The translations under genes and the position numbers were made by a program. A stretch of 64,000 nt of DNA from the sequence record OP557969.1; one strand, given 5' to 3'. Below the pieces are notes generated by a model. The model was not told the DNA's origin, did no database searches, and saw only the letters and a list, made by a program, of their open reading frames with translations. Shown one piece after another: positions 11,740-58,935 of the stretch; within the stretch, counting starts at the first letter, position 1; the number at the start of each line of letters is the position of its first letter. The stretch is from Escherichia phage ph0011.

Positions 11740-11935
11740 TCGAATTGAATACATGAGAACTGTGAGTGCAGTGTGGGACATATGGTTCACTACTAAACCA
11801 AAAATGGATTACCATGACTTTAAGCTATTGTTCTTCGTTGGCTCTAACAAACAGGATGTTGCAATGAAGGGTTATATTCAGCACTTACAGGAACTAATCC
11901 AGAAGAGAATATATGAAAATAATAGACCAAGATGA
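11717..11935 (+). CDS. small hypothetical protein, family B
   Basis: ATG ORF; motif DFKLLFFVGSNKQ; overlaps upstream gene by 23 nt, start uncertain. Confidence 0.45.
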   Translation: MKYSKTFNRIEYMRTVSAVWDIWFTTKPKMDYHDFKLLFFVGSNKQDVAMKGYIQHLQELIQKRIYENNRPR

Positions 11936-12104
11936 TATTGCTAAACTATTCAATATATATTCTTCTAAAATGATGCAAATCGACTCATATAGTACTGAAT
12001 TCAAAGAATTAAAAGTACTGATGTATTTGGGTACACAACATCAGGAACAAGTTGTTAAAGAATATATTGATTCATTACAGAAGGATATACGTTATGTACA
12101 ATGA
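11913..12104 (+). CDS. small hypothetical protein, family B
   Basis: ATG ORF; motif LKVLMYLGTQHQEQVV. Confidence 0.5.
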   Translation: MKIIDQDDIAKLFNIYSSKMMQIDSYSTEFKELKVLMYLGTQHQEQVVKEYIDSLQKDIRYVQ

Positions 12105-26262: not shown

Positions 26263-26285
26263 GTCCAAATTTATGGAGATTGTAT

Positions 26286-27134
26286 ATGTTAGATAGTACA
26301 GAATTTCGCAACTTCAAAAAGTATTCAGTACTTGAACATATCAACGAATTTCTGAATTCTCCAACACCATTTGGTATCAGTACATCAGATTCATACGATG
26401 GATATAGAATCTTCACATGTAATGACTTTCAAATTTCTGTCAAAAAAGGTACTTCAAAAGAAGTTGCAATTCGTGATGTAGTACTGTATAGCGATTCTTC
26501 CATTTCTTACTGTCATGATGTGAACAATTTTGAATCTCTTTCAACACCTAATTGTTCATACTACAAATCCCATGACACGATGATGTATAAAGAACAACAT
26601 ATCAATGGCGTTTCGTTCTATAAAACTAGCAGTGATAAATCATATACATCTAGAGATGATTTTGGAAAATACACATGTACTATGTACACGGATAATGAAA
26701 AAACAAATTACACTCATTCATTCGAGTCCAAATTCAAAGAAAGTGAAGTTTCAAATATCACTATACAAGAACAGGTATCAGAAGGCATTGTTTATCGTAG
26801 CACTGCATTCTTTCGCATGAAAGATATTGAATCTGGTAGGCCAATGATGTATAATATTGATATATACATGCAAGGTGAAATATCTGAAGTAGTGATTAGT
26901 GTTGGATATCGTACTAGCTTCACATTTACGATAAACTCACCAGATGCATCATTGGTACACCTCTTTGACAAATTGTATACATTCCAAGTTGAGTTTTGTC
27001 TCAATTCAAACGAATATCAAATATTCGATATATTAAAAAGTAATATCATTAATAAATTAGAATATTACTATAAGTTGGGTGGGAAGATGAGTATAGTTAA
27101 TACAATGATACATAATATAAAAGAAACATTATAA
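26286..27134 (+). CDS. hypothetical protein
   Basis: ATG at 26286 after GGAG; 282 aa. Confidence 0.6.
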   Translation: MLDSTEFRNFKKYSVLEHINEFLNSPTPFGISTSDSYDGYRIFTCNDFQISVKKGTSKEVAIRDVVLYSDSSISYCHDVNNFESLSTPNCSYYKSHDTMMYKEQHINGVSFYKTSSDKSYTSRDDFGKYTCTMYTDNEKTNYTHSFESKFKESEVSNITIQEQVSEGIVYRSTAFFRMKDIESGRPMMYNIDIYMQGEISEVVISVGYRTSFTFTINSPDASLVHLFDKLYTFQVEFCLNSNEYQIFDILKSNIINKLEYYYKLGGKMSIVNTMIHNIKETL

Positions 27135-28310: not shown

Positions 28311-29159
28311 ATGAAACTTTATCTAATCGTTGACTACAGTAAGGGTTATTATGACTACGCAGAAGAATCTGAAGGGTATTGCTCGTCTACTAATGTCAAT
28401 GTACGCACCAGTAGTACACATGAGCATGAATCTATTACAAATCTAAAAGATTTTATTGCATATCGAGCATTTGAAAAGAATTTCTGTCGTAGTAGATATT
28501 CGAAGTTTGAGTACCCGTTAATTGATGTTCCTGATGAATTGATGTTCCAGTTAATGCTCACTGGAGTACAAGATTATGATTACATTGCGTACAATCACAT
28601 TACTAAGAAAATTTATATCGGTACGTCAACGCATGACATTTCTATGTATGCATCATGCCCCGATGATCGAATGAATGATAGAAAATCATACTATAGTGGT
28701 TCAGTTGGTTCAAATGTTCCATCAAATAAAAATTTATTCTTTGAGTACGAGTTTGATAATCATCGAGGGAAAACAGACCGAGAAGATTATTGTACTGAAA
28801 TTAATAGTTCAAATGGATATGAAGAAGTGAAAGAAGCAATAATGCCATATATCCTAGACAAGTACTACAAAGATTTTCAGTACTGTAGTAATTTTCTAAT
28901 CCGAAATTCTATCAAAATCGGTCGTCAAAGCACTGCATTCTCTAAGTACTACAATGATTCCCCTGTTGCTGAAAATGAATACTGTAATGTTCTCTCAATC
29001 CCACGTGAAGATATGGTATTCATGTTCACATCTTTCATTGAAGATGATGAGTTGTATGTAAAAAACAAGCACAGGTTCATGCTAAGTAATATTGAGGTTA
29101 TGAGAAGCTTAAGTGCAGATATATTAACGAATTTCACTGAAAAAACAGAATACAACTGA
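28311..29159 (+). CDS. FQ-family-related protein (atypical, long C-terminal extension)
   Basis: ATG after GGAG; motif PDELMFQLMLTG near residue 75 of 282. Confidence 0.6.
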   Translation: MKLYLIVDYSKGYYDYAEESEGYCSSTNVNVRTSSTHEHESITNLKDFIAYRAFEKNFCRSRYSKFEYPLIDVPDELMFQLMLTGVQDYDYIAYNHITKKIYIGTSTHDISMYASCPDDRMNDRKSYYSGSVGSNVPSNKNLFFEYEFDNHRGKTDREDYCTEINSSNGYEEVKEAIMPYILDKYYKDFQYCSNFLIRNSIKIGRQSTAFSKYYNDSPVAENEYCNVLSIPREDMVFMFTSFIEDDELYVKNKHRFMLSNIEVMRSLSADILTNFTEKTEYN

Positions 29160-29762: not shown

Positions 29763-30386
29763 ATGCGTAGCATGGATAATTCTACTGGTGTTGATGTAAT
29801 CAACATCACGTATATATTCATTGAAGTTTCCACAGGAATAATGATGGCATTTATTAAAAAACAAAAAACATTTACCTATAAGACTTTGGATTTTATTGAT
29901 TGCGAAAATCAAACACAGAATGAAGATAACTTTACTGGATTTGTTGTTATTAAAGAAAAAGGATGTATTTCGTATATCAAGGAATTACAAAATGGAATTG
30001 AAGTAACGTCGGTTAAATTACTTCCTACACAAAAGCCAACAATATCCAAAGCACAATATGGTAATTATTTTGAGGAAAGATATAGTAATAATTTAATAAG
30101 TGTTAAGGCTCATATTATAAAAGGAGAACTAGAAGGAGAATATAGAAAATTCAATCCACAAGGAAAATGTGTTTGGGTTAAATACTTCAATTCAGGAAAT
30201 GATGTAACATCTGAAATAATTGAGTTTTTAGGTTTAACATGTACCCCTGAAACTCTTCATGACTACAAATTTAATGCTGAAGAAGAGTTTAATCTGATGA
30301 TGCGTTATGGAACACATTTTAAATTTTTATATGAATATAACATTGACAGTGGTGTTTTTGATAGGATAGTACAAAACTGTCTTTAA
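29763..30386 (+). CDS. hypothetical protein with MORN/YwqK-like repeat segment (start uncertain)
   Basis: ATG ORF; segment GEYRKFNPQGKCVWVKYFNSG resembles MORN-type repeats; alternative ATG further downstream. Confidence 0.45.
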   Translation: MRSMDNSTGVDVINITYIFIEVSTGIMMAFIKKQKTFTYKTLDFIDCENQTQNEDNFTGFVVIKEKGCISYIKELQNGIEVTSVKLLPTQKPTISKAQYGNYFEERYSNNLISVKAHIIKGELEGEYRKFNPQGKCVWVKYFNSGNDVTSEIIEFLGLTCTPETLHDYKFNAEEEFNLMMRYGTHFKFLYEYNIDSGVFDRIVQNCL

Positions 30387-30402: not shown

Positions 30403-30927
30403 ATGTCGAAGAAGGATACTTCGAAGAAAAAGCAATCAGTACATTTCAGTACTGGAAAAGATAACTGGACAACTCCAAAGGATTTCTTTGAAGAGTTGGA
30501 TGAGTTATGGGGATTCACACTTGATGCTGCTTGTGTTGATGAGACGGCATTATGTGAAAATTATTTTACACCAAATGACGATTCTCTATCACAGGATTGG
30601 GGAAAGAATATAGTTTGGTTAAACCCGCCATATAGTGATTTGAAAACATGGTTATCTAAAGCAGTAGATGCGTATAATAAAGGAGCAACAGTCGTAATTC
30701 TAGTTCCATCACGAACTGATACAATAGCCTTCCATGAATATGCTGCAAAAGTTTGTGATTGTATTTGTTTCATTAAAGGAAGATTACGATTTGGTATCCC
30801 AGAAGAACCAGAGAAGAAGACAGATTCAGCACCATTTCCTTCATGTCTTATAGTTCTTGATAATTACTTAACTACTGCTAAAATAAATTATCTTAAATCT
30901 ATTGGGTTGGTAATGAAGAAACTATGA
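30403..30927 (+). CDS. dam: DNA N6-adenine methyltransferase, phage Dam family
   Basis: ATG after AAGGA; motifs WTTPKDFFEEL and catalytic NPPY (VWLNPPYS) typical of phage N6-adenine methyltransferases. Confidence 0.88.
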   Translation: MSKKDTSKKKQSVHFSTGKDNWTTPKDFFEELDELWGFTLDAACVDETALCENYFTPNDDSLSQDWGKNIVWLNPPYSDLKTWLSKAVDAYNKGATVVILVPSRTDTIAFHEYAAKVCDCICFIKGRLRFGIPEEPEKKTDSAPFPSCLIVLDNYLTTAKINYLKSIGLVMKKL

Positions 30928-31457
30928 AAGAAACATGTATTTTATCATTTATGAGATGTAACCCTGTACATAATGGACATGGTTTAGTTTTTGAAAAGGC
31001 CAAAACATTACAAGAACAGTACAATGCTGATTTGAAAATATATCTAAGTACCAGTACTGACAATATAAAAAACCAACTCCCACCTGAACTAAAAATGTAT
31101 TATACAGAGGGATTTTATCCTTCAGTACAAGAGAACATCTACACCGAAGACAATCTATTTGATATAATGAGAGAACTGGATGGAAAATACTTAGATGTAT
31201 TTTTCATATGTGGTTCAGACCGTATTGAATCTTTTCAGAAAACTCTTGACAGTTACAATGGGAAATTATATAATTTTTGTAATATAAAAGCAATTCAAGC
31301 AGGTATTGATCGCCAATCAAGTCAATATAGTTCAACACAAATGCGTAACTTCGCAAAAAATGAAGATTTTGATAATTTTCGAGAATTTTTACCAGGTAAT
31401 GATGAGGACTTAAAAATTCAATTATTTGAAGATGTTATCAAATACATGAGGAAATAA
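30924..31457 (+). CDS. HxGH-motif nucleotidyltransferase (NMN/NaMN adenylyltransferase-like)
   Basis: ATGA overlap with dam; N-terminal CNPVHNGHG (HxGH) and C-terminal SSTQMRN (ISSTxxR-like) motifs. Confidence 0.7.
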   Translation: MKETCILSFMRCNPVHNGHGLVFEKAKTLQEQYNADLKIYLSTSTDNIKNQLPPELKMYYTEGFYPSVQENIYTEDNLFDIMRELDGKYLDVFFICGSDRIESFQKTLDSYNGKLYNFCNIKAIQAGIDRQSSQYSSTQMRNFAKNEDFDNFREFLPGNDEDLKIQLFEDVIKYMRK

Positions 31458-32671: not shown

Positions 32672-32941
32672 ATGAATTACAAAAATATACAATTCACTTA
32701 TATGGAATTATTTAAATTACACCATAAAAACAGAAGTTCTAACACAATTATTAAAAATGCGTTTACCCATAAACTATGGACAAATTACCTAGAAGAATTG
32801 CGTGAATATTTTGTTGATACTGAAATTTTCATTGGTGGTAAAAAACGAAAAATACTTAGAGTCGATAGTTTTGGTGGTCGATTAGTTCTTTCATATAAAC
32901 TTAATAACGATCTATGTTCTGTGAATTTGGTAGATTTATGA
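32672..32941 (+). CDS. small hypothetical protein, family C (N-terminal NIQFTY motif)
   Basis: ATG after AAGGA; MNYKNIQFTY; C-terminal beta-rich segment shared with next four genes. Confidence 0.6.
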   Translation: MNYKNIQFTYMELFKLHHKNRSSNTIIKNAFTHKLWTNYLEELREYFVDTEIFIGGKKRKILRVDSFGGRLVLSYKLNNDLCSVNLVDL

Positions 32942-33198
32942 ATTATAAAGATTTCCAATTTACATTCAAATATATTCGTAGTATAGCAGATAAAAATAAT
33001 AGTGTGTTTTTAGAAGACACATGTTCTGAAATGATTAATACTGTTCGTGATAGGATTAAAGAAAAATTCAGTACTGTTATTATTAACGATGAACATGCAG
33101 AATTTTCAGATATAATAATTCGACGAGATGGTAAAGTTGAGGTTCAGTACTACACTGATTTTGGATTTACCAGTGTTACGTTGGAGATATTCCCTTGA
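32938..33198 (+). CDS. small hypothetical protein, family C
   Basis: ATG at 32938 (ATGA overlap); MNYKDFQFTF. Confidence 0.55.
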   Translation: MNYKDFQFTFKYIRSIADKNNSVFLEDTCSEMINTVRDRIKEKFSTVIINDEHAEFSDIIIRRDGKVEVQYYTDFGFTSVTLEIFP

Positions 33199-33506
33199 GA
33201 TTAAATTTAAATGATATTCAATTTACATATAAAAATATATACGATTTGTATGATATGTATCTTTTTAGTGGGAAGATTGGTAACCATACTGAATCAAAAG
33301 AATCACCATTTATCCAAAATTACTTTGATTACTTAGATGCAGTTGGTGAATATATAAAAAAGAATTACAGTACTTACACTGATGGAGATGATATGTTTGA
33401 ATATTCAGGTATAAAATCTTATCAAGGAATTATCCATGTTGAGTTTCTTGAAAAAACTGATAGGGAGTTTATAGAGATCAAAGTGATGAAGTTAACGGAC
33501 CTGTAA
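33195..33506 (+). CDS. small hypothetical protein, family C, probable TTG start
   Basis: TTG after GGAG; LNDIQFTY motif. Confidence 0.5.
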   Translation: MRLNLNDIQFTYKNIYDLYDMYLFSGKIGNHTESKESPFIQNYFDYLDAVGEYIKKNYSTYTDGDDMFEYSGIKSYQGIIHVEFLEKTDREFIEIKVMKLTDL

Positions 33507-33516
33507 GGATTGACAT

Positions 33517-33807
33517 ATGATTCTTAATGATATACAATTCACATATAGAGTTTTATACATGGAGTACTCTCATACTGATCCTAAAGACTATCACTATTAT
33601 GAAACCTTTCGAACGATATGGATTGAATTTTTAGATGAATTAAAAGCGTATTACGGTAGTGTTCGTATTGTTCGTGATGGTAGAATTTACACTTGTAAAG
33701 ATGTTGTCAGTCATAGTGGTAAGCTACGATTAGAATTATATACAGAAGGACATGGTTGGATTGGTGTAAATTTACTGGATTTAGATAATGAAACACAACT
33801 TAAATGA
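33517..33807 (+). CDS. small hypothetical protein, family C
   Basis: ATG after AAGGA; MILNDIQFTY. Confidence 0.6.
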   Translation: MILNDIQFTYRVLYMEYSHTDPKDYHYYETFRTIWIEFLDELKAYYGSVRIVRDGRIYTCKDVVSHSGKLRLELYTEGHGWIGVNLLDLDNETQLK

Positions 33808-34066
33808 CATACAAGTGTTCTATAGCTTCGTATATGAATCTTATGCATCAGAAGGTTACTATGAAAGTGTGTATTATTTTTTATGGCAACAATACCGTAC
33901 TATAGTACGAGATTTATATATAGGAAAATATATAACATACTGTGATAGTAGAATGATGTGCACAGATGTTCTTAGTTATCATGGTAGGTTGGTATTCCAG
34001 TTCGAAGACAGTGAAGGTAGTATGTCTTTAAATGTAAGAGATTTAAAAGGAGTGCATTTTGAATAA
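33788..34066 (+). CDS. small hypothetical protein, family C
   Basis: ATG ORF; NLNDIQVFY motif. Confidence 0.55.
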   Translation: MKHNLNDIQVFYSFVYESYASEGYYESVYYFLWQQYRTIVRDLYIGKYITYCDSRMMCTDVLSYHGRLVFQFEDSEGSMSLNVRDLKGVHFE

Positions 34067-35296: not shown

Positions 35297-36781
35297 ATGA
35301 AAGTATGTACGAATTTAAATGTTACTGGTGATATAACGTCTAATGGGATGACGTTAAGCAAGAATCATAATTATGAGAATTTTAGTGACCTACAAGAAAG
35401 ATGTACTAAAATGCTTTTACAATTTGATAAACCTGAAGTATACGATCCTGATATTACTATTACAATAACTACTAAAAATGTAAATTATACATATAAAGGA
35501 CCAATTGATGGTATGTGTGATATAGAAAATCCTTCATTGTATAAAATTTCCATGTATGTATACACTGACAAAGAGTATTTTATAAACGATGTACAATTAT
35601 CAGATGATGGTAGTTTTCATTTTTCTAAAACGAATAATGGCTCAAAACAATTTAGACTAATTAGAATATCTGATAATAAATGGATTGATACATTAGAATA
35701 TGCATTATTGACTAGAAGTTATATAATACCAGAAACTGAAGATTCGCAAGTTAGAAATACAATGAAAGATCGTTGTTACACATATGATCAAGCGGCAGTT
35801 GCTATTGCATTAATGGTACAAAACCACCCAGAGATGGATAGATATGTATATGGTTTGTGTCAATTGGTTGAGGAAAATGGTGGAATAAAATTTTTTGTTA
35901 ATAGGATATCGGCATTTTCCAATAGAGCATACTATAGAATGGGTAATGCTGCATGGGTATTATATGGATTAGCTTTTTACTTATGGAAATTCCCAGATGG
36001 GGTATATGCGAATTTGGCCCGTGAAAAACTTTTGTTAGGGTTAGAATGGGTATCAACTTTTAAAGTAACTACACCCGGTGATAAAAGAGAAGGTTTATAT
36101 ATGGGTGGAAAAGGAAAATTTATCAATAATGGTTCTCAATTTGACCCGAATTACATTGCTAGTTGGTGTGCAATGGAACACAATTTAGATCTTTGGTTTT
36201 TATTTGATCTATGCTCTGTTATTGGAATTCAGAATTATGATACAATAGCAAAGGAATTACATAATAATATAAATGATAAATTGTGGATAGAAAGTGAAGG
36301 ACGTTTTCGTCAAGGTGTACATGAAACAACAGATGATAATGCTGCTGCATTAGATCAATCATCATGGGGTGGTTTGTATTCTTTATATGCAGATGGTAAT
36401 GATACAAAAGCAGTAAAATGTCACAAATATATGGAACGTTTTATGTTTGGTACGTTGGAATGTGAGGGATATACGCCTTATAATAAATTATTTGGTTATC
36501 CAAATGCAGTACAAGGTGTATGGACTGAAGGAACTGCTGGTGTGGCTTTGTTTGAACGTGCATTGGGTAATGACAGAACTGCCGCAAAATTAATTGCTAA
36601 TTTGAAGCCTATATGTGACCCAGTTTATGGATATCGTGACTCATGTGATGACCCAGATTACGATGTTCTTCCAGATTGGCCTTCCTCGTGTAATACAGCA
36701 TGGATTATTCTGGCTATTAACCCACAAGGTTTCTGGAAAGTTGAAGCCCCACTGATGGATATTGGGCTTGTGAAATATTAA
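35297..36781 (+). CDS. large hypothetical protein, possible alpha/alpha-toroid (six-hairpin) glycoside-hydrolase-like fold
   Basis: ATG after AAGGA; 494 aa; repeated aromatic/Gly-rich segments (NAAWVLYGLAFY, LDQSSWGGLY, VWTEGTAGVALF, SCNTAWIILA); fold call is my pattern-based guess. Confidence 0.5.
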   Translation: MKVCTNLNVTGDITSNGMTLSKNHNYENFSDLQERCTKMLLQFDKPEVYDPDITITITTKNVNYTYKGPIDGMCDIENPSLYKISMYVYTDKEYFINDVQLSDDGSFHFSKTNNGSKQFRLIRISDNKWIDTLEYALLTRSYIIPETEDSQVRNTMKDRCYTYDQAAVAIALMVQNHPEMDRYVYGLCQLVEENGGIKFFVNRISAFSNRAYYRMGNAAWVLYGLAFYLWKFPDGVYANLAREKLLLGLEWVSTFKVTTPGDKREGLYMGGKGKFINNGSQFDPNYIASWCAMEHNLDLWFLFDLCSVIGIQNYDTIAKELHNNINDKLWIESEGRFRQGVHETTDDNAAALDQSSWGGLYSLYADGNDTKAVKCHKYMERFMFGTLECEGYTPYNKLFGYPNAVQGVWTEGTAGVALFERALGNDRTAAKLIANLKPICDPVYGYRDSCDDPDYDVLPDWPSSCNTAWIILAINPQGFWKVEAPLMDIGLVKY

Positions 36782-36793
36782 TTATAATAAAAA

Positions 36794-36825
36794 ATGAACA
36801 TATAAAAATATATGTTCATTTTTTT
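36794..36825 (+). terminator. rho-independent terminator
   Basis: ATGAACATATA-loop-TATATGTTCAT hairpin followed by T7. Confidence 0.6.
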
Positions 36826-36826
36826 A

Positions 36827-36854
36827 TGGACATTATTAATATTTGTGATATAAT
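36827..36854 (+). promoter_or_regulatory. sigma70-like early promoter with extended -10 (TGTGATATAAT)
   Basis: TGGACA-N16-TGaTATAAT directly downstream of the terminator. Confidence 0.5.
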
Positions 36855-36894
36855 ATTGGATAAGGAACAATAACTAACACAAGGAGTGTGGAAA

Positions 36895-37623
36895 GTGCTT
36901 GACCGTATCCGTTTTGCCACAGAGATGGCGAATGAATTAAACATGGCAAATTTTCAAATGTTAACATCAGTGATGGCTGAACATGCATGTGCTTATTCTG
37001 TAAGTGGTGTGCAGTGTGGTCAGGAGAATATGTTAGCAGATGTATATAGCGAAGTTCAAAGTAAACAATACAGTGTAAAGACGTACAAGGATAAGTTCGT
37101 TAGTCTTTATATGAATGAAGACATTTCAGAAGACCGCAAATATACTGATTTTATTATTGAACGAAGAGTATCAGGTGTATCTAATCCTAACGCACCAAGT
37201 GATGAAGTTTTTTCAGAAGTACTGAAAGATATATACGAAAATGAATTGAAAAGTAAGAATCATTACAATGTACGTGAAACTAACACTGTGCTCTTGGGAT
37301 ATGATGAAGACGATCAATATTATTATTTCCGTATGACAGAAGTCCCTTTTGAATACAAATCACCAAGTACTACTGCTGTAAAAGAATTTACCGAGAAAAG
37401 CAAGAACTACAAGAAACATGAAGGCAACCGTTGTAGTATAAATGGTTATAATGAAGATGGTGTTCATATATATGAATGGGTTCATCCTAATTGCCAGACA
37501 TATACCCGTTGCTTGAAGAAACGTTATAATTTAGAAGACAATGAATCCTTCTACTTTAAAGTTAAGAAACAAAGCTATACTCGCCCTGAAGATTCAGAAT
37601 TGATGGGTATGGTATATTTCTAA
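36895..37623 (+). CDS. hypothetical protein (start uncertain: GTG at 36895 or ATG at 36925)
   Basis: ORF track frame; AAGGAG at 36881-36886. Confidence 0.5.
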   Translation: MLDRIRFATEMANELNMANFQMLTSVMAEHACAYSVSGVQCGQENMLADVYSEVQSKQYSVKTYKDKFVSLYMNEDISEDRKYTDFIIERRVSGVSNPNAPSDEVFSEVLKDIYENELKSKNHYNVRETNTVLLGYDEDDQYYYFRMTEVPFEYKSPSTTAVKEFTEKSKNYKKHEGNRCSINGYNEDGVHIYEWVHPNCQTYTRCLKKRYNLEDNESFYFKVKKQSYTRPEDSELMGMVYF

Positions 37624-37632
37624 GGAACTGTT

Positions 37633-37914
37633 ATGGATTTTTACCTACACACATGGTCATACGAACAATACATTACATTATATCTTGAGATTATTAATAC
37701 TGATCCCAGATATGGTTGTGATTTTGCTGATATTATAAAAGAGTATGCAGATGAGTTTGAGTTTGTATATCTTGGCTCTGACCTATTCGTGAAGAGTGTA
37801 GGTAAAACCGGACGCATCACTGAGATTGATTATGATACTGTTAGTGTGAATTTCTATGTTGATTTTCCTTGTGATGGCGTTGATGGTGTATATTGTCTAT
37901 ATGAAATAATTTAA
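37633..37914 (+). CDS. hypothetical protein
   Basis: ATG after AAGGA; 93 aa. Confidence 0.6.
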   Translation: MDFYLHTWSYEQYITLYLEIINTDPRYGCDFADIIKEYADEFEFVYLGSDLFVKSVGKTGRITEIDYDTVSVNFYVDFPCDGVDGVYCLYEII

Positions 37915-37931
37915 ATTTTTAGGCCAGCGTT

Positions 37932-37955
37932 TGCTGGTCTTTTTTCGCAGGTACA
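37932..37955 (+). terminator. rho-independent terminator
   Basis: GGCCAGC-GTTT-GCTGGTC hairpin followed by T6. Confidence 0.6.
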
Positions 37956-37958
37956 AAG

Positions 37959-38258
37959 ATGATTAGTATAGATTTAATTAACAGTACTATAAAGTTGTTG
38001 GCTGATGTAGTGAGAGAATCCAATGGAACTGTATACCCATCAATGTATAAAATCTTTGAACGATACATCAAGGATTGTAACATATCCTTATATGGACTGG
38101 CGGTTGATATAGACGACCACTATGAAATTAATACTTCATATAAAACAGGAATGTTAATTGGTATTAATATGATGGGATATTTTCCTTATTACTGTATAGG
38201 ATTACCAGATAGTACTATGGTAGATTACCCAGCCAGTACTATTAAATTAAGAGGATAA
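37959..38258 (+). CDS. hypothetical protein
   Basis: ATG ORF 99 aa. Confidence 0.55.
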   Translation: MISIDLINSTIKLLADVVRESNGTVYPSMYKIFERYIKDCNISLYGLAVDIDDHYEINTSYKTGMLIGINMMGYFPYYCIGLPDSTMVDYPASTIKLRG

Positions 38259-38265
38259 AACTAAA

Positions 38266-38844
38266 ATGAATGTATTAGAATTAAGTACTAAGCTTATTAG
38301 TATGCGTAATGAGTGGTACGATTGGTTTTATAAAGGCACTGATATGGATTTTTCAAAATATCCATTTATGGAATCAGGATGTGATGCAAACTACCGCTGG
38401 TTGAGCAAAAGTGATTCTGGTTTATTCATTCGAATTGATGATAGTGGTCAAGGAATTTTAAAAGATTTAATTCGAGTTGAAGAACTCGTCCATGACAATT
38501 GGTGTGATAATGATCCATACCTTGGAAATATGATTTATGTAAGTGAAAATGATTGCATATTCGTTATCCAGCGTCATGGTGATTCTATGTTTTATGTAGC
38601 AGACAACAGTACACCTGACGGTGCGGCAGCCAGTGAACTTATGCCTAAGATTGGTATATTGGAATTTGGATTACCTGAGCACTTTCAGATTAGTACTTTA
38701 TACGATATTCCACCACTTGAGTTCTTTGAAGAATTTAAATTATACTACAATGATCTTCAAAAATTGAGTTCTGAACATCGAATTGAAATAATAGTCAAGT
38801 ACATGGATGGGACAAAATTAACCGATACGGGGATAGAATTTTGA
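38266..38844 (+). CDS. FQ-family paralog (outlier copy)
   Basis: ATG after GAGGA; core LPEHFQISTLYD. Confidence 0.65.
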   Translation: MNVLELSTKLISMRNEWYDWFYKGTDMDFSKYPFMESGCDANYRWLSKSDSGLFIRIDDSGQGILKDLIRVEELVHDNWCDNDPYLGNMIYVSENDCIFVIQRHGDSMFYVADNSTPDGAAASELMPKIGILEFGLPEHFQISTLYDIPPLEFFEEFKLYYNDLQKLSSEHRIEIIVKYMDGTKLTDTGIEF

Positions 38845-39530
38845 TTAAAGATTTAGATAGAATTTTATATGTACTAAGGGGTGTGATTACATTGCATCCA
38901 CAGATTAATCGCATGGAGCGTGTATTTGAATTAAAATCAATAGAAACTCCATATTCACATATATCAAATGTAGTTGGATCATTCAGTACTGAAGACTCTC
39001 CATATGATATTTGTGTATGTGAAGTACAACCAAGTTCGGATATTGGATTTGCTATTTTTGATAAAAATCGAAATCTTATTAGTATGTTTCAGTGCAATAA
39101 TCCTTTTTGGAAAACATGCCTGTATCCAGAGTGGGCTATGCTTGATCCAACAAAGAGTAACATTAAAGTGTACGACTCTAAAAACAAAGAAGTCGTTATT
39201 GATTTGGATGAGTCAATGACTGAGGAAGAACACTTTCAGTTAATGATGTTGCGAGCTATGCCTGAATACAATGCAATGATTAACACTGTGAAATATATTA
39301 ATGATACTATGCAATCATTGCGTACACATGAGTTTTGTCATCCAGTATTGTATGAAAATTTAGATTTAGACTTCAGTACTATTAAATTTAAAGATAATGT
39401 TGTAAATTACATTCAAGAGAATGTTAAATTTGATTTTATTAATACTATGAATAATAATCCAAAAACAAATTTCAGGCATCAGTATAATGAATCGCTCTCT
39501 AATGGACGCGATACCAGTTGGTGGAAATAA
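38841..39530 (+). CDS. FQ-family paralog (outlier copy), probable TTG start
   Basis: TTG overlapping upstream TGA; core TEEEHFQLMMLRA. Confidence 0.5.
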   Translation: MIKDLDRILYVLRGVITLHPQINRMERVFELKSIETPYSHISNVVGSFSTEDSPYDICVCEVQPSSDIGFAIFDKNRNLISMFQCNNPFWKTCLYPEWAMLDPTKSNIKVYDSKNKEVVIDLDESMTEEEHFQLMMLRAMPEYNAMINTVKYINDTMQSLRTHEFCHPVLYENLDLDFSTIKFKDNVVNYIQENVKFDFINTMNNNPKTNFRHQYNESLSNGRDTSWWK

Positions 39531-39531
39531 T

Positions 39532-39795
39532 ATGAATATCCAAGATAGATTACAATTGTTGTGCACACTTGAACAAGCTGCTTATGAACTTGTTAATAAA
39601 ATCTCTGAAGAACTTCCCAAAGGAACTAGAGTTCGTGTTCGTGAAATGGATTATGTAACGGGTGAAATTGAAGAAAAAGTTTTAACAGTGGTTAAAGTAA
39701 CATACTATGAGTCAGAGCTATCAATTCAATGTAAGTCAGATAATGGTTACATTTCCTACTATGGCACTGATATAGAGATGGAGGTAATCAAATGA
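39532..39795 (+). CDS. small hypothetical protein
   Basis: In-frame ATG at 39532 after GGTGGA. Confidence 0.5.
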   Translation: MNIQDRLQLLCTLEQAAYELVNKISEELPKGTRVRVREMDYVTGEIEEKVLTVVKVTYYESELSIQCKSDNGYISYYGTDIEMEVIK

Positions 39796-40934
39796 CCCTT
39801 TTACAAATATATGAAGATTTGATGCACTTATGTAATACCCGTGAGGCTTTCTTTTATGTAGATCATAAAAGTCCTGCTGGTGGCACATATCGTGTATTCA
39901 GTTATCGACTAGCATCATATACTGATTTCATGCAACCGAATGCATTGGAAACCCGTGGTTCTATGTGGGAAATCGATGACGATGGCAACATGATACGTTG
40001 TGCATCACGTTGTATGAAAAAGTTCTTTAATGCTTACGAAAATCCTGCTACGATGTTCCCTGCTGATACCAAATGTGATGACATTGCAGTAGTGATGCCT
40101 AAGTTGGATGGTTCAATTATCAGTTCTTACCGTGATAATGATGGTATTATTCGTTGTAAATCACATACCTCATTGTATTCTGACCATGCAATTAACAGTA
40201 CTCGACTAATTAACGAGAACCAGAATTTGTATCAGTACATTGATGAAGCTGAACGTTTGGGTTACACGGTTAACATGGAGTACACAAGCCCAGAGTACCG
40301 AATCGTATTGCCATATCAGGTAGAACAACTATTTGTTCTAAACGTCCGTCATCGTGTAAGTGGTGAATTGTTGTGTGGTAAAGCATTACGCGAAAAGTTT
40401 CCTTGTCTTTCACAGTACAGCACCAATATGACAGGTAAAGATATTCATCACACGTTTCCGGTAAGAAATACATTTCGTGAAAGTGTTGAAGAAGTTCATA
40501 AAATGCTTGATATTGAGGGTTTTGTTTGTATTCTAAAAGATGGGACAATGTGTAAAATAAAGACGGATTGGTATAGTTCATTACATCTAACAAAAGACAG
40601 TATCATTATTGATTCACATTTGTTCGAAGCTGTGTTAAATGGTTCAAGTGACGACTTGAAACAATTATTCAGTACTGACGAATATGCTATGCAAAAGATA
40701 TTGAGAATGGAACAATTGGTATTTTCGTGCTATAATTCATTACAAGATGAGGTAGAAAACTTCGTCAATACACACAAGCACTTGGGACGAAAGGAATTCG
40801 CAATGAAGGTTCAGGAGTGTTTGACTAATGAACTAAATCGTCAGGGCTTGGCCTTTGCAATGTATAACAATAAGTATGTTGATTATAAAGAAACTCTTAT
40901 CAAATACATGAAAGTAGTACTAAAGGACTTTTAG
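39792..40934 (+). CDS. rnlA: RNA ligase 1 (T4 Rnl1/gp63-like)
   Basis: ATGA overlap after GAGG; 380 aa; N-terminal segment FFYVDHKSPAGGTYRVFSYRLASYTDFMQPNALETRGSMWEID closely parallels T4 Rnl1 as I recall it, including the adenylylation-site lysine context. Confidence 0.9.
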   Translation: MTLLQIYEDLMHLCNTREAFFYVDHKSPAGGTYRVFSYRLASYTDFMQPNALETRGSMWEIDDDGNMIRCASRCMKKFFNAYENPATMFPADTKCDDIAVVMPKLDGSIISSYRDNDGIIRCKSHTSLYSDHAINSTRLINENQNLYQYIDEAERLGYTVNMEYTSPEYRIVLPYQVEQLFVLNVRHRVSGELLCGKALREKFPCLSQYSTNMTGKDIHHTFPVRNTFRESVEEVHKMLDIEGFVCILKDGTMCKIKTDWYSSLHLTKDSIIIDSHLFEAVLNGSSDDLKQLFSTDEYAMQKILRMEQLVFSCYNSLQDEVENFVNTHKHLGRKEFAMKVQECLTNELNRQGLAFAMYNNKYVDYKETLIKYMKVVLKDF

Positions 40935-40966
40935 TATAATCTATAGCCTAAGCACAAGGAGAAGTG

Positions 40967-41221
40967 ATGGCTAAACCTAAGTATAGAAATGACGGTTCCC
41001 TTTCTCCAACAGAGTTCAGGAAGATACAAGAAGAAATCGATACATTACAGCACAAACGCTCTAAGAAAGGTGTGAAGATTAGTAAGAAACGAATCGAGAA
41101 TACTTTCGGTTGTAGTAGTACTGAATATAAAAAGAAAAGGAAACCGAAAGATGTTAGACCGAGAATATATGATATTACTCGTTATACATCAAGACGTGAA
41201 AATAAGTTTGATCCACTATAA
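40967..41221 (+). CDS. small basic hypothetical protein
   Basis: ATG after AAGGAG; Lys/Arg-rich 84 aa. Confidence 0.55.
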   Translation: MAKPKYRNDGSLSPTEFRKIQEEIDTLQHKRSKKGVKISKKRIENTFGCSSTEYKKKRKPKDVRPRIYDITRYTSRRENKFDPL

Positions 41222-41230
41222 GGAGTTCAT

Positions 41231-41461
41231 ATGAAAGTTGAAGTTCAGCATAGTATTGTTCAAGATATGTCGGTAGTGAAATTTCATTCTCTGAAAGATT
41301 ACTTCAGGTGTATCAAGTTTCTAGAAGAATCTCATTTACAGTGGACTCCATTGAAATACAGTTCATTTAATGATACAGCTAGTATTCGTTGTGATGAATC
41401 TGTACTTGTAAAAATTACAAAACGATTTGGGTTAGGTAAAATTAATGAGCACAGTAAATGA
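41231..41461 (+). CDS. small hypothetical protein
   Basis: ATG after AAGGAG. Confidence 0.55.
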   Translation: MKVEVQHSIVQDMSVVKFHSLKDYFRCIKFLEESHLQWTPLKYSSFNDTASIRCDESVLVKITKRFGLGKINEHSK

Positions 41462-41699
41462 CCTAAAATACTACAACCAAACTGCGGATACCTTTATTAC
41501 CCATTTATATGAAGAATTCAGTCGTATCCGCAATGAATATACTGGTAAATGTATTTTATATAGCTTTTATCATAGTGGTGAAATTGAACTTGCTTACATT
41601 ACTAAAGTGAAGTTTTCAGATGACTATCAATTACTCTTTGAATTAGACAATAGTTTCGTTATTGAAGCTAATTTGATAGTTGATGTACTAGATAAGTGA
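41445..41699 (+). CDS. small hypothetical protein
   Basis: ATG ORF 84 aa. Confidence 0.5.
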   Translation: MSTVNDLKYYNQTADTFITHLYEEFSRIRNEYTGKCILYSFYHSGEIELAYITKVKFSDDYQLLFELDNSFVIEANLIVDVLDK

Positions 41700-41705
41700 G
41701 GACAC

Positions 41706-42020
41706 ATGAATAAAGAACTTGCTCAAAAAGGCATTGATCAGTTAAAGTACATTGAAAAGGAACTAATAGAATCAGTTGAATTAATGGTCGAAGATTTCGT
41801 GTTTGATTTTAAGAAAACATTGATTGGATGTAAAGTCAAATGCTGGGACCATACTATCAGGGAATGGTTTAGTACTATAATCCTTGATGTTAAAGTATCG
41901 CGTACTGCTTTTGGTAACTTAGTAAATGGTGAATGCTTTGTATACACTGAATACAATAACGGAACAAGACACCTTTCAAAAGGATGGCACAGACTCGAAG
42001 ATGTAGAATTCATTGAGTAG
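41706..42020 (+). CDS. small hypothetical protein
   Basis: ATG after GAGGA. Confidence 0.55.
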   Translation: MNKELAQKGIDQLKYIEKELIESVELMVEDFVFDFKKTLIGCKVKCWDHTIREWFSTIILDVKVSRTAFGNLVNGECFVYTEYNNGTRHLSKGWHRLEDVEFIE

Positions 42021-42032
42021 TAAGGAGTAATA

Positions 42033-42965
42033 ATGCCGACTATCACACTAACAGTTGGTTTACCTGGATGTGGTAAAACAACATGGGCAGTACAAGAGAT
42101 TAAAAAAGCCAAATCCAAGACTATCAATATCAACCGTGATGATATTCGTGAATCGATGGCTGGGTCACATGATGCTTACAAATTCAATGATGCTAATGAG
42201 AAGTACGTAACTAATTTACAGTTCAGTGCAGCAAAATTAGCAGCAGAGAATGGTTGGAATATTATTGTATCCGACACAAACCTTAAACCACATTTCCGTG
42301 AACAATGGAAAATGTGGGCTAAAGATAATGGTTATGATTATAAAGAAAAGAACTTCTATGATGATTTTGTACCAAAGGAAGACCGTGGTGCAGATGTTCA
42401 TGAATTCTTTAAGATTAAAGAGTTTGTAAAACTTTGTAAGAAATATAACCTCCAGCGTGAGCGTTCAGTACAAGATAATATCATTGACACAATGGCAGAT
42501 ACGTACTATTATAGTAAGGCATTGCATATTGGTTACTATGGTAATTCTCGTGAAGAAGCGATTATCGTTGATATCGATGGAACTCTTGCTCATAAATGGA
42601 ACCGCAATCCATTTGATGAAAGTACAGTTCTCCAAGATACACCAGACGAAGAAGTTATTTTGTCTGTTATCGCCGAAGCAGTTTTTCATAAACGCAAGAT
42701 TATTGTCATGAGTGGTCGTACTGAAGGGTGTCGTGCTGACACAGAACAGTGGTTGAAGAATTGGGGTGTTCCCTACGATGCATTGTTTATGCGAGGCATT
42801 GATGATAAACGTCCCGATGATGTTGTTAAATTCGACCTGTACATGAAAAATGTGGTTGATCATTACGATGTTAAAAAAGTATATGATGACAGAGCACAAG
42901 TCGTATTCATGTGGCGTAAACTACTTGGATTGAAAGTGATGCAAGTTGCGGAAGGAAATTTTTAG
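42033..42965 (+). CDS. pseT: polynucleotide 5'-kinase/3'-phosphatase (T4 Pnk-like)
   Basis: ATG after AAGGAG; P-loop GLPGCGKTT in kinase domain; phosphatase DxDGT motif (VDIDGTL); collinear with T4 PseT as I recall it. Confidence 0.92.
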   Translation: MPTITLTVGLPGCGKTTWAVQEIKKAKSKTININRDDIRESMAGSHDAYKFNDANEKYVTNLQFSAAKLAAENGWNIIVSDTNLKPHFREQWKMWAKDNGYDYKEKNFYDDFVPKEDRGADVHEFFKIKEFVKLCKKYNLQRERSVQDNIIDTMADTYYYSKALHIGYYGNSREEAIIVDIDGTLAHKWNRNPFDESTVLQDTPDEEVILSVIAEAVFHKRKIIVMSGRTEGCRADTEQWLKNWGVPYDALFMRGIDDKRPDDVVKFDLYMKNVVDHYDVKKVYDDRAQVVFMWRKLLGLKVMQVAEGNF

Positions 42966-42973
42966 TACAAAAA

Positions 42974-42997
42974 GGGATCAGTATATGATCCCTTTTT
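42974..42997 (+). terminator. rho-independent terminator
   Basis: GGGATCA-GTATA-TGATCCC hairpin followed by T5. Confidence 0.65.
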
Positions 42998-43034
42998 CTT
43001 TTAAGGTACATTATAGTGAATGTAACAACACAAA

Positions 43035-43193
43035 TGTTATTACGAAAAGATTATTTAGAAAATATAGAAAGATTCTATAGAATGTCTTTGTATGAAAATA
43101 AGCATAAAAATTATAATTTTGATAAACTGCTAAATTCCAGTACTGATGATTATTTATTTTCATCAATGTTTTATGTGAGAGGATTATTGTAAT
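43035..43193 (+). CDS. small hypothetical protein (52 aa)
   Basis: Hand-translated ORF below the track cutoff; TAATG overlap with the next gene. Confidence 0.25.
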
Positions 43194-43452
43194 GGATAAA
43201 TTTCATACAGATATAACACAGATAGGTAACCTTATCAATAGTCTAATTACTGATTTAGAAGAAAAGTACTTAGGGCGAAATGTATACGTAGAAATGTATG
43301 AAACATATGGTGTTATTGATATGATTTATTATAGTGCATTGAAATATGAAATACGTTTAACTGTATGTTTATATGAAAAAGGTACATTTAAAAGAAGTTC
43401 TGCAATCCGTCAAGTCGGAGTTGACGACATTGAATTATACGAGGAACAATGA
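43192..43452 (+). CDS. small hypothetical protein
   Basis: ATG ORF 86 aa. Confidence 0.55.
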   Translation: MDKFHTDITQIGNLINSLITDLEEKYLGRNVYVEMYETYGVIDMIYYSALKYEIRLTVCLYEKGTFKRSSAIRQVGVDDIELYEEQ

Positions 43453-43703
43453 TGTTTGAGCAGGACTTAGAGCTATTCAAAAGTTATATTGAGTACTTAG
43501 TTACTTTAGAAAAAGAGCTAACTGCAAAGTACAAGGGTGTTCGTGTTCAGTGCTGGTATGACGATTGTGATTATAAACGTGAACTTATTATTGACCGAAT
43601 ATATTTCATCGATGGTGTATTGAATGTACATGGTGTTAATGATTTTGGACATTCATATACTTATTCAAATAATGCAAAATTCAAGAGGATTGACAATGAA
43701 TGA
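43449..43703 (+). CDS. small hypothetical protein
   Basis: ATGA overlap after GAGGAA. Confidence 0.55.
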   Translation: MMFEQDLELFKSYIEYLVTLEKELTAKYKGVRVQCWYDDCDYKRELIIDRIYFIDGVLNVHGVNDFGHSYTYSNNAKFKRIDNE

Positions 43704-43998
43704 GTATTATCAAAATTTATTCAAATACATAAAACTAATAGATGATCTTGCTTTTGATTTTCTTAGTACTGATAAAGTTGATGAGCCTTTATATTATGAT
43801 TGTATTGGTTCACTTTGTTCATATGAAAAAGAAATATTAGAAAACAATTTACCATCAACGCTCTGTATTATCAATGGTTCTAAAGCGGTGGTGGTAGATG
43901 TTAATTTTTATAAATCACTTAATACAATTGTTTACAAGTTTGATAACACTGGGTTTAATCATATAACAGGTAATATTAAATCTGTGAGGTTCTTATGA
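43696..43998 (+). CDS. small hypothetical protein
   Basis: In-frame ATG at 43696 after AGAGGA. Confidence 0.5.
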   Translation: MNEYYQNLFKYIKLIDDLAFDFLSTDKVDEPLYYDCIGSLCSYEKEILENNLPSTLCIINGSKAVVVDVNFYKSLNTIVYKFDNTGFNHITGNIKSVRFL

Positions 43999-44291
43999 AT
44001 TTAAAACATTTGTTAGAACAGGCTCATTTATTGTATAGCTGTGCTGATGGTTCTGGTAAGGAGTATAGTGAAGTTTATTTAGAACTGTTTAGAACGGAAA
44101 TACACATAATTAGAAGATACTTAATTGATAATAAAACTGAAGTAAAAGTTAGATACCATAATGGTACTTTAAAGAATGGTATAATTATTGGATTGATAGT
44201 TTCACGAATGTCTAGTAATATTAAAGTTGCAATTAGATTAATGACTGATGATGGTGTCTACACCATAGAAGTAAGTGAGATTATATATTAA
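43995..44291 (+). CDS. small hypothetical protein
   Basis: ATGA overlap. Confidence 0.55.
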   Translation: MNLKHLLEQAHLLYSCADGSGKEYSEVYLELFRTEIHIIRRYLIDNKTEVKVRYHNGTLKNGIIIGLIVSRMSSNIKVAIRLMTDDGVYTIEVSEIIY

Positions 44292-52301: not shown

Positions 52302-52997
52302 ATGGTTGAACAATTCAATTTTGGTGGTTATGCTAATGGTGAAGTAAGTAACATTTCTATTCCATATGTAGTTGAGAAAGTTAATGGTTCAGAACGTACA
52401 TATGATCTAGCATCTCGTATGATGCAAGACCGTATCATTTTCCTTGATACTGACTTCAATGACCAAATGGCACATATCATCAAACAACAATTGGTGTGGT
52501 TAGACTCACAAGGTGATTCCCCTATTACATTCTATATTAGCTCACCGGGCGGTTCAGTACACGCAGGATTGGGTATTGCAGATGTTGCCAAGTCTTGTGT
52601 TTCACCAATTCGTACTGTAGTAATGGGTTATGCAGCTTCAATGGGGTGTTATACTCAATCGGTAATTGGTACTAAAGGTTTTCGTTTAGGTGGTAAGCGT
52701 TCTTACTTTATGTGTCATCAAGTAAGTTCTGGCACACAAGGTTTAATTACCGACCAGAAGATTTCACTTAAACATTCTGATGAATTGAATACACTATTGA
52801 CCAAAGAAATCGCAGAAGCAGTAGGTGTTTCTCATGAACAACTACTGAAAGATGCAGACCGTGATTTGTGGTTGAATGCTGAAGAAGCACTCGAATATGG
52901 TGAAAAAGGATTTATCGATGGTATTATCCTTGGACCACGCAACGAGAAAGGTCAATACCTAGTCAAGCGTCGTGGTGGTGTTGAAGAGTGGGTGTAA
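52302..52997 (+). CDS. ClpP-like serine protease (peptidase S14 family)
   Basis: ATG after GAGGAAAA; segments RIIFLDTDFND, ISSPGGSVHAG, GYAASMGC (Ser), MCHQ (His) align with canonical ClpP. Confidence 0.85.
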   Translation: MVEQFNFGGYANGEVSNISIPYVVEKVNGSERTYDLASRMMQDRIIFLDTDFNDQMAHIIKQQLVWLDSQGDSPITFYISSPGGSVHAGLGIADVAKSCVSPIRTVVMGYAASMGCYTQSVIGTKGFRLGGKRSYFMCHQVSSGTQGLITDQKISLKHSDELNTLLTKEIAEAVGVSHEQLLKDADRDLWLNAEEALEYGEKGFIDGIILGPRNEKGQYLVKRRGGVEEWV

Positions 52998-58329: not shown

Positions 58330-58935
58330 ATGAAACTATTCTTGAAAGAGATTGTACAAACCGTTGTTTTAATCGCTGCATTAAATTTTCCAGCAGCGGC
58401 AGAAGTTTCAAAAAAAGCATCTGTTCTTCTATTAAATGAACAGGTTGTATCAATGGATGGTGAACTAAATGATAATACGGTACAAGAAGTAGAGCAGTTG
58501 TGGAAAGAAAAAAGATTTAAAATTTTAACAATTACATCACCTGGGGGTGATTTTGATGCTGGTATTAAAATGGCAAATTTTGTTAGAGACAATGGTATAA
58601 ATTTAATTGTTTCTAAATATTGCAATTCGGCATGTACTGTGGTATTCTTTAGTGTATCCCCAGAAAAGCGATATATGACAAATCAATCAGTACTGGGATT
58701 GCATAATATTTCAATCAAAAGTAACGTTAAAGATATGGATCATACTTTCGTATCTGTTAGACAACTATCATCATTTACTGAAGAAATGGCAACAAAAGTA
58801 GGATTTTTATTTACACTATATTCAGCTAATGGTATTCCACCTAGCATTCTATATAAAGTTAGTCGTTCACGTGGTGAAGATGTTGTTATCTTAACAAAAA
58901 CAGACCTAATAAATTACGGTTCAGTCAATCCATGA
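58330..58935 (+). CDS. putative secreted ClpP/SppA-fold serine peptidase-like protein
   Basis: ATG after GAGG; N-terminal signal-peptide-like hydrophobic segment; ITSPGGDFDAG and CNSACTVVFF resemble the ClpP/S49 SPGG and Ser regions. Confidence 0.45.
   Translation: MKLFLKEIVQTVVLIAALNFPAAAEVSKKASVLLLNEQVVSMDGELNDNTVQEVEQLWKEKRFKILTITSPGGDFDAGIKMANFVRDNGINLIVSKYCNSACTVVFFSVSPEKRYMTNQSVLGLHNISIKSNVKDMDHTFVSVRQLSSFTEEMATKVGFLFTLYSANGIPPSILYKVSRSRGEDVVILTKTDLINYGSVNP

Follow-up and report, generated by a model that had tools for sequence, protein, structure and literature searches.

Two probable members of a dispersed paralog family upstream of the RNA ligase gene of Escherichia phage ph0011

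The g38266 and g38841 genes

The sequence considered here, referred to as the window, is a stretch of 64,000 nucleotides (nt) from Escherichia phage ph0011 (OP557969.1), which on the basis of its sequence is a 121Q/PBECO4-like Asteriusvirus (Rak2-like) jumbo coliphage, with ~90% nucleotide identity over positions 36800–42000 to 121Q, PBECO4, slurp01 and other Asteriusvirus (Rak2-like) jumbo coliphages. Its G+C content is ~32%, and all of its substantial open reading frames (ORFs) are carried on the + strand. Two adjacent genes, at positions 38266 and 38841 (g38266 and g38841), lie upstream of an RNA ligase gene (rnlA) and had been assigned in an earlier note on this DNA to a family of paralogs, here called the FQ family, whose main array is located in the first part of the window. 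Both genes are very probably divergent members of this family, the case being firm for g38841 and reasonable for g38266.

As the earlier note had it, both are + strand ORFs bearing the family motif. The g38266 product contains LPEHFQISTLYD, with EFGLPEHFQISTLYD at residues ~135–149, and its motif, L-P-E-H-F-Q-I-S-T-L-Y, is found 52 residues from the C-terminus. The g38841 product contains EEEHFQLMMLRA, with SMTEEEHFQLMMLRA at residues ~125–139, and its motif, E-E-E-H-F-Q-L-M-M-L, is found 96 residues from the C-terminus, the FQ and the acidic run being kept and M replacing S. With lengths of 192 and 229 amino acids (aa) and isoelectric points (pI) of 4.4 and 5.2, both are of the type typical of the family, namely small (~100–230 aa) acidic proteins encoded on the same strand in packed or overlapping runs. 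The TTG start of g38841 sits in a TTGA overlap of 4 nt with the stop codon of g38266; this start is also used in 121Q, with ATG being present in more distant orthologs.

Orthologs of g38266 were found at 80–91% identity in Asteriusvirus-type phages only, and the gene is absent from phage Turkey5. The orthologs of both genes are annotated as hypothetical proteins in 121Q (genes 435 and 436), PBECO4, phAPEC6 (gp379c and gp378c) and others. A further point is that the annotation of phAPEC6 (MK817115.1, 276983–277669) shortens the g38841 ortholog gp378c to 130 aa, leaving a gap of ~290 nt. A tblastn search showed an intact ortholog of 229 aa at 89.5% identity in that genome, so the TTG start was probably missed by its annotators.

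The position of the genes relative to their surroundings differs in two respects from that first described. They do lie upstream of rnlA, but not immediately so, as an ORF of 102 aa intervenes. They are also well separated from the main array, but by 12.7 kb from its last profile-supported member (ending at 25606) instead of the proposed ~9 kb; the shorter distance holds only if g28311 is counted as a member, yet this protein fails to score on the family profile.

The FQ family and its main array

At least 41 genes within 1330–25606 share the signature [ST]-E-E-x-x-F-Q-x-S-[LT]-[IV], or in fuller form D..[ST]-E-E-x-x-F-Q-x-S-[LT]-[IV], in which the FQ dipeptide is nearly invariant. In nearly every gene from 1330 to ~25600 the signature is located ~40–75 residues from the C-terminus. 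An iterative hidden Markov model (HMM) started from one BLAST cluster linked 28 array genes using the window alone, with FQ falling in a single alignment column in all 28. In a broader profile of 123 members (see below), no other internal column comes close to F (93%) and Q (95%) in information, the next being E at −4 and D at −11. Within the family alignments A3 and A4, Q is invariant and F is present in at least 90% of rows, and when 39 sequences were aligned with MAFFT, the FQ of g38266 fell in the invariant Q column. The residue following Q is highly variable (Q, N, E, L, M, H, Y, K, R, A, G or I). The family is acidic, with a median pI of 4.9 versus 5.4 for the other proteins of the window (p = 8e-4), and its genes, of which there are at least 43, take up ~40% of the window.

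Three larger proteins of 284, 282 and 207 aa are encoded just past the array (26280–27134, 28311–29159 and 29763–30386). The second of these, g28311, holds the motif-like string PDELMFQLMLTG and the third holds EEEFNLMMRYG. None of the three scores on the family profile, and they may be either unrelated proteins or relatives that have become fused or have diverged greatly. Further small paralog groups were detected by BLASTP within the window (E ≤ 1e-3), these being g32672/g33517/g33788 (32672–34066), g56408/g56705/g56894 (56408–57106), g52302/g58330 (52302–52997 with 58330–58935) and g196/g360/g11913 (196–644 with 11913–12104).

Membership of the two genes in the family

A motif model of 18 columns was built from 28 array members that had been linked statistically without using the motif, and all proteins of the window were scored with it alongside 13,500 shuffles. 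Among the proteins encoded outside the array region (downstream of ~25.6 kb), those of g38266 and g38841 ranked as the top two, with empirical per-protein P values of 0.0012 and 0.0016. Both therefore carry the family signature, and the occurrence of the motif in them exceeds chance.

Pairwise comparison was less informative. At E ≤ 1e-3, BLASTP within the window linked neither gene to anything, and at E ≤ 10 weak matches to g21031 and g21625 were obtained (E 0.003–0.017). Homolog searches returned only close orthologs for g38266 and only its own orthogroup for g38841, with no bridge to the main array.

A broad profile was then prepared from main-array genes only, upstream of the DNA methyltransferase gene, of ph0011, EJP2, Erwinia phage Hallingskeid and Klebsiella phage fENko-Kae01 (Kae01), the last three being divergent relatives represented by their matching left-end regions. 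This was iterated to convergence at 123 proteins, 41 of them from the window, with zero ligase-proximal genes in the training set. Against it, g38841 scored 30.0 bits (E 1.3e-8) and g38266 16.7 bits (E 1.7e-4), and the alignments of both run past the motif on both sides. By comparison, the best of 3690 composition-matched shuffles reached 12.3–13.2 bits (13.2 being the best in any iteration), and among the remaining real proteins of the window from outside the array the highest score was 10.0 bits. The family membership claimed for the two genes was thus borne out by the four-phage profile; it is almost certain for g38841 and likely for g38266.

Synteny of a second mini-array in related phages

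Examination of related phages, which the earlier note had recommended, showed that a gene order is kept around the two genes, consisting of a gene for a 245-aa protein, one to five FQ genes with the g38841 ortholog last, the RNA ligase gene (its product being RnlA) and the gene for polynucleotide kinase/phosphatase (PNKP). This order was seen in 121Q, Turkey5, EJP2, Hallingskeid, Kae01, 7t3 and three distinct IMG/VR contigs. The view that the family is dispersed and not confined to one block is therefore upheld, with a second FQ mini-array lying between the 245-aa gene and RnlA in every relative examined, these being eight in number and as low as 25% in identity, and the arrangement is old.

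A g38841 homolog of 21–30% identity is located directly 5' of RnlA in EJP2, Hallingskeid, Kae01, 7t3 and the three IMG/VR contigs. In these relatives it is preceded by one to four more genes, which score up to 32 bits on the main-array profile. The g38841 ortholog overlaps the start of RnlA in Hallingskeid, Kae01 and 7t3 and, judging by ORF calls, in the IMG/VR loci also. For g38266, weak BLAST links (E 4e-5 to 8e-4) were found to mini-array genes of IMG/VR contigs, which score up to 29 bits on the family profile. The ligase-proximal copy number varies, with one in Turkey5 (the g38841 ortholog only), two in ph0011 and 121Q and several profile-positive genes in Kae01 and 7t3. In EJP2, profile-positive genes also fill the stretch from a nucleotidyltransferase gene to the 245-aa gene, there being ~8 in all, some of them weakly scoring.

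The 245-aa protein (243–245 aa) shows 61–79% identity among ph0011, 121Q, Turkey5, EJP2, Hallingskeid, Kae01/7t3 and the IMG/VR loci, versus 25–30% for the FQ genes there. It gave no match in Pfam, NCBIfam or the PDB and no score on the FQ profile. A conserved string, ELNMANFQ.L, was observed at its N-terminus. Between the main array and the mini-array lies a conserved block which includes the methyltransferase gene and a nucleotidyltransferase gene. Because the order of the flanked block is conserved across the relatives, g38266 and g38841 most probably represent a reduced remnant of an ancient second mini-array; to judge from these comparisons, they did not escape recently from the main array.

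Constraint and predicted structure

Comparison with 121Q gave ratios of nonsynonymous to synonymous substitution (dN/dS) of 0.32 for g38266 and 0.14 for g38841, and both are real protein-coding genes under purifying selection. In the same comparison, dN of the family was above that of its neighbors (median 0.135 versus 0.072, p = 0.008), with dN/dS being similar (0.25 versus 0.19, not significant). Across the g38841 orthogroup, which comprises 23 members at 21–25% overall identity, D74, W98, E128, E130, H131, F132, Q133, P141 and Y171 are invariant, and so is the motif E.EHFQ.

An AlphaFold2 model of g38841 based on the orthogroup alignment had a predicted local distance difference test score (pLDDT) of 78 and a predicted template modeling score (pTM) of 0.75. 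Its elements are, in order, two N-terminal helices, a seven-strand β region, a helix at residues 128–137 with the motif at its start, a long helix, a strand and further helices, and pLDDT over the motif is 83–86. In this model, the [ST]-E-E at the start of the motif helix looks like an N-cap with acidic residues. This would explain part of the conservation of the motif, but not the invariance of F and Q. A search of the BFVD with the model returned orthologs of g38841 and, in addition, weak matches (E 1e-4 to 1e-2; template modeling scores 0.27–0.39) to uncharacterized proteins of 178–201 aa from the phages RaK2, GAP32 and fHe-Yen9. Small α+β inhibitor or immunity proteins (Tni2, BLIP-like, PepSY/YpmB and LolA-like) are weak structural neighbors.

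Gene neighborhood, expression and virion association

The features surrounding the two genes are collected in Table 1.

Table 1. Main array and ligase-proximal features of ph0011 (positions within the window).
Feature	Position	Strand	Remarks and basis
Main FQ-family array	1330–25606	+	41 profile-supported paralogs, 104–202 aa, mostly abutting or overlapping; motif listing, iterative HMM, alignments
Sigma-70-type promoter-like site	36827–36854	+	Near-consensus TGGACA-16-TG-TATAAT; gap before g36886
Conserved 245-aa gene	36886–37623	+	Marker of the upstream edge of the ligase-proximal block; phrog_16105
Terminator-like hairpin	37921–37940	+	8 pairs, 5 of them G-C, then a T run; between g37633 and g37959
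g38266, probable FQ-family member	38266–38844	+	192 aa, ATG start, motif PEHFQISTLYD; ORF and profile score
g38841, near-certain FQ-family member	38841–39530	+	229 aa, TTG start, motif EEEHFQLMMLRA; ORF and profile score
Small ORF	39487–39795	+	102 aa, probably 87 aa as in the 121Q annotation; phrog_28139
T4 Rnl1-type RNA ligase (rnlA)	39792–40934	+	Pfam PF09511 and PF20819
PNKP polynucleotide kinase/phosphatase, T4 pseT-like	42033–42965	+	Pfam HAD_PNKP (6.9e-43) and AAA_33

The rnlA product is of the T4 Rnl1 type, with both the RNA_lig_T4_1 nucleotidyltransferase domain (PF09511, 57.6 bits with a cut-off of 28.3, 2.2e-15) and the T4_Rnl1_C domain (PF20819, 62.8 bits with a cut-off of 27, 4.9e-17) being present, and its counterpart is annotated as an RNA ligase in all relatives. 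The small ORF preceding it scored 10.0 bits (E 0.019) on the 123-member profile and is not a family member. EJP2, Hallingskeid and Kae01 lack it, and there the g38841 ortholog abuts rnlA or overlaps with it.

Sites resembling sigma-70 promoters (at least 11 of 12 consensus positions) were found 20 times on the + strand of the window and not at all on the − strand, with 2.7 expected from shuffles. Two are perfect TTGACA-17-TATAAT sites, and examples lie at 860–888, 31246–31274 and 36827–36854. Most are located near the 3' end of one gene, 30–150 nt ahead of the next. This distribution suggests that the whole window is an early region transcribed by the host RNA polymerase, and the two genes are probably expressed early as well. 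The main array of Kae01 directly follows the terminal repeat of 19.7 kb. Start and stop codons overlap from gene to gene from g38266 through rnlA, and no further terminator-like hairpin was detected on the + strand at 37940–44000, which makes co-transcription of g38266 and g38841 with rnlA plausible.

The virion proteome of phAPEC6 (62 proteins) includes nothing between gp347 and gp549, an interval which holds the orthologs gp379c and gp378c as well as the array member gp426c (PMC7247149). Mass spectrometry data for Kae01 (LC-MS/MS, liquid chromatography with tandem mass spectrometry) are uninformative on virion association, having been obtained from an ultrafiltered lysate which also contained replication enzymes.

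Two other features near the locus were observed. An ORF of 494 aa (35297–36781, + strand) matches the C-terminal ~480 residues of tail-fiber PHROGs (phrog_13714, E 5.7e-184) and lies within the early-type region, flanked by small genes and by the 245-aa gene, in a place that holds no gene in 121Q and Turkey5. It gave no megablast nucleotide match in 50,697 phage records, only its last 55 bases (promoter-bearing spacer) matching, and it seems to be an N-terminally truncated fiber or depolymerase-like gene inserted specifically in this strain. The ORF at 30924–31457 (177 aa), located after the DNA methyltransferase gene, corresponds to 121Q gene 418. It is labeled "ribonucleotide reductase A" in 121Q and 7t3, and its counterpart in EJP2, Hallingskeid, Kae01 and Turkey5 is annotated as a cytidylyltransferase/nucleotidyltransferase; the reductase label looks like a mis-annotation.

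Distribution and annotation of the family

An exhaustive HMMER search with the 41-member window alignment against 1.84 billion representative proteins gave only 118 matches at E ≤ 0.001 and none at E ≤ 1e-30. Ten of these clusters were sampled, and all those bearing an informative name belonged to this phage group. The six with named members consist of hypothetical proteins from Asteriusvirus-type phages or from contigs of ~350 kb filed under E. coli, and four are without names; one partial sequence among the sampled clusters was filed under another organism. Many family members have been deposited as "Escherichia coli" proteins on contigs of 345–360 kb (proteins P0146–P0215). These contigs are whole Asteriusvirus genomes in bacterial assemblies, arising from a carrier state or from contamination.

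The FQ family is present in every Rak2-like relative examined. No match for it above threshold was obtained in Pfam, NCBIfam, the annotated PHROGs or the PDB, and the members examined are split by PHROGs over many small families of unknown function. The genome papers of RaK2 and CBB mention unexplained paralogs in general terms, and in that of CBB 22 ORFs are listed as paralogous and an early region served by RpoD-like promoters is put forward (CBB: PMC5259590). In the papers searched on 121Q, PBECO4, RaK2, CBB, phAPEC6 and Kae01 and in a comparative survey of jumbo phages, no account of the FQ family was found. The paralog families of the Rak2-like phages RaK2, CBB, 121Q and PBECO4 have thus been noted before, but the FQ signature, the presence of at least 43 copies in the window and the mini-array beside RnlA were not found in their papers. 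The FQ family itself is undescribed and merits a curated model.

Discussion

The best explanation of the locus as a whole, to which a probability of roughly 0.6 is given, is that g38266 and g38841 are divergent FQ-family members which represent the remnant of a second mini-array and encode early host-binding proteins. The family would then be a lineage-specific, greatly expanded set of small acidic cytoplasmic α/β proteins of Asteriusvirus/Rak2-like jumbo phages, in which the FQ signature would form the N-terminus of a core helix following a variable β-sheet. The helical core may act as an unchanging scaffold, with the variable sheet serving as a binding surface that has diversified. The products are suspected to be early intracellular proteins that bind or neutralize host factors, in host takeover or counter-defense, and a single transcript would encode both the ligase-proximal copies and the tRNA-repair enzymes. 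An early intracellular role is suggested because the region is rich in host-type promoters and because the products were not found in virions. We infer the binding, its timing and the co-transcription from such features, and this functional part of the explanation is put forward tentatively, at somewhat less than even odds.

A number of observations weigh against this explanation, in part or in whole. The earlier note had named failure of the two proteins to score against a profile built from the main array as the outcome that would count against it. This did occur with the 28-member profile made from the window only, which misses both genes (E 7.3 and 7.7, or no match), and taken literally the claim would fall there, whereas the four-phage profile detects both. 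Comparison by hhalign of shallow ortholog profiles with the window array covers only 25–31 motif columns (P 0.009 and 0.011). As neither this nor the window-only profile reaches further, homology beyond the motif rests on one iterated profile, on which the margin of g38266 over the best decoy is just 3.5 bits. The motif of g38841 departs from the consensus past FQ, reading L-M-M-L and not x-S-[LT]-[IV]. The AlphaFold2 model of g38266, made from a paralog-dominated alignment, is unreliable (pLDDT 50.5) and unusable for a fold search, although the order of its elements is as in g38841, and a shared family fold of N-terminal helix, variable β region, motif helix and long helix is not demonstrated by these models. 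Gene-wide dN/dS gives no positive selection, though a family engaged in an arms race might show some. The terminator-like hairpin stands between the nearest strong promoter and the two genes. Finally, no match in Pfam, NCBIfam, the annotated PHROGs or the PDB points to a function.

If the FQ string were shared by chance or convergence, the two genes would be unrelated to the array. The failure of the window-only profile and the short hhalign alignments would be expected in that case, PHROGs assigns the two genes to separate small families of their own, and an exhaustive word-seeded profile search started from the g38841 orthogroup found nothing beyond its members. This possibility was already disfavored and is considered quite improbable, as the broad profile parts both genes from all decoys and from unrelated real proteins, and the two matches are adjacent, with the motif at the same relative position in proteins of family-typical size. 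In addition, the positional equivalents in relatives score on the family profile, and the motif is kept across highly diverged orthologs. A different meaning for the motif itself was also considered. The protease of tobacco etch virus (TEV) is specific for ENLYFQ↓S, and several family members read EEYYFQQS, EEGYFQGS or EESYFQNS, so that the motif might be a TEV-type processing site (E-x-x-Y-x-Q↓S/G) in a family of processed, possibly virion-packaged internal proteins; paralogous internal head proteins processed by a protease are known in jumbo phages such as phiKZ. In the g38841 model, however, the motif forms a structured helix N-terminus and not an exposed linker, and the variable residue following Q is unlike the small P1' of 3C/NIa sites. 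The T4 gp21-type prohead protease cleaves after Glu. It is the only protease noted (PMC7247149), no 3C/NIa-like protease was seen, and no family member occurs in the phAPEC6 virion proteome, so the motif was rejected as a TEV-like substrate and the processing explanation is held to be very unlikely. Less credible again is the proposal that Q-x-S-L-[IV]-[FY] mimics a sliding-clamp-binding motif, by which the members would dock on the host β clamp. Its sole support is a resemblance of the consensus FQxSL[IV][FY] to the bacterial clamp-binding consensus, QL[SD]LF or QLxLxL. Motifs of this kind normally lie in disordered termini, whereas the motif here is predicted to be helical and internal, and it is not obvious why a single target should be common to more than 40 paralogs.

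A further alternative is compatible with family membership and differs from the preferred explanation on function. In it, the g38841 orthogroup serves RnlA/PNKP repair as a dedicated accessory factor, for instance by targeting or regulating the ligase as its partner, and its likeness to the family is only ancestral. The g38841 ortholog is directly upstream of RnlA in every relative examined and is far more stable in position than other members; its 3' overlap with the RnlA start in Hallingskeid, Kae01, 7t3 and apparently the IMG/VR loci suggests translational coupling; and it has extra invariant polar residues (D74, H131 and Y171, with H163 and D177 nearly invariant) that are absent from the wider family. 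On the other hand, a small unrelated ORF intervenes before rnlA in ph0011, 121Q and Turkey5, adjacency alone is no proof of interaction, orthology by itself may account for the extra conserved residues, and with no PDB or Pfam match no known Rnl1 partner resembles g38841. A specific role in RNA repair is kept in view because the position beside RnlA is stable and apparently translationally coupled, but this alternative is regarded as unlikely. A more far-reaching proposal is slightly less probable still, namely that the FQ helix serves all members as a docking or effector module, that the 40-plus paralogs amount to a diversified set of adaptors or decoys, each directed at a different defense or housekeeping protein of the host, and that the ancient g38841 orthogroup, apparently coupled to RnlA in translation, is a hitherto unrecognized subunit or specificity factor of a phage system of tRNA-repair counter-defense.

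Returning to the preferred explanation, in which the two genes belong to an expanded family of early host-binding proteins, parallels are found in known systems. In T4, the pair of RnlA (Rnl1) and PseT (a PNKP) mends tRNA cut by a host anticodon nuclease. The defining Pfam domains of this module were found in 39792–40934 and 42033–42965, and its gene order is the same in all relatives. The T4 module has no counterpart of the two FQ genes, however, and the link of the FQ family to RNA repair is positional only. An expansion of similar character, of ~35 copies of a zinc-ribbon protein, occurs in Bacillus phage G, where a single jumbo phage genome likewise carries small, rapidly diverging paralogs in tandem by the dozen. 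It differs in fold and motif, the FQ family being without a metal-binding signature. Such lineage-specific expansions, known from large phages and giant viruses, have been read in one survey as adaptations in host interaction or regulation, and no mention of the FQ family was found in it as far as it was searched (PMC7824862).

The result is incremental and mostly confirmatory, in that two members and a second conserved location are added to a paralog family. Together, the family signature, the working profile and the RnlA/PNKP anchor make several dozen "hypothetical" genes per genome annotatable. The profile and the anchor also allow members to be picked for functional tests of early takeover and counter-defense in jumbo coliphages, which are candidates for phage therapy.

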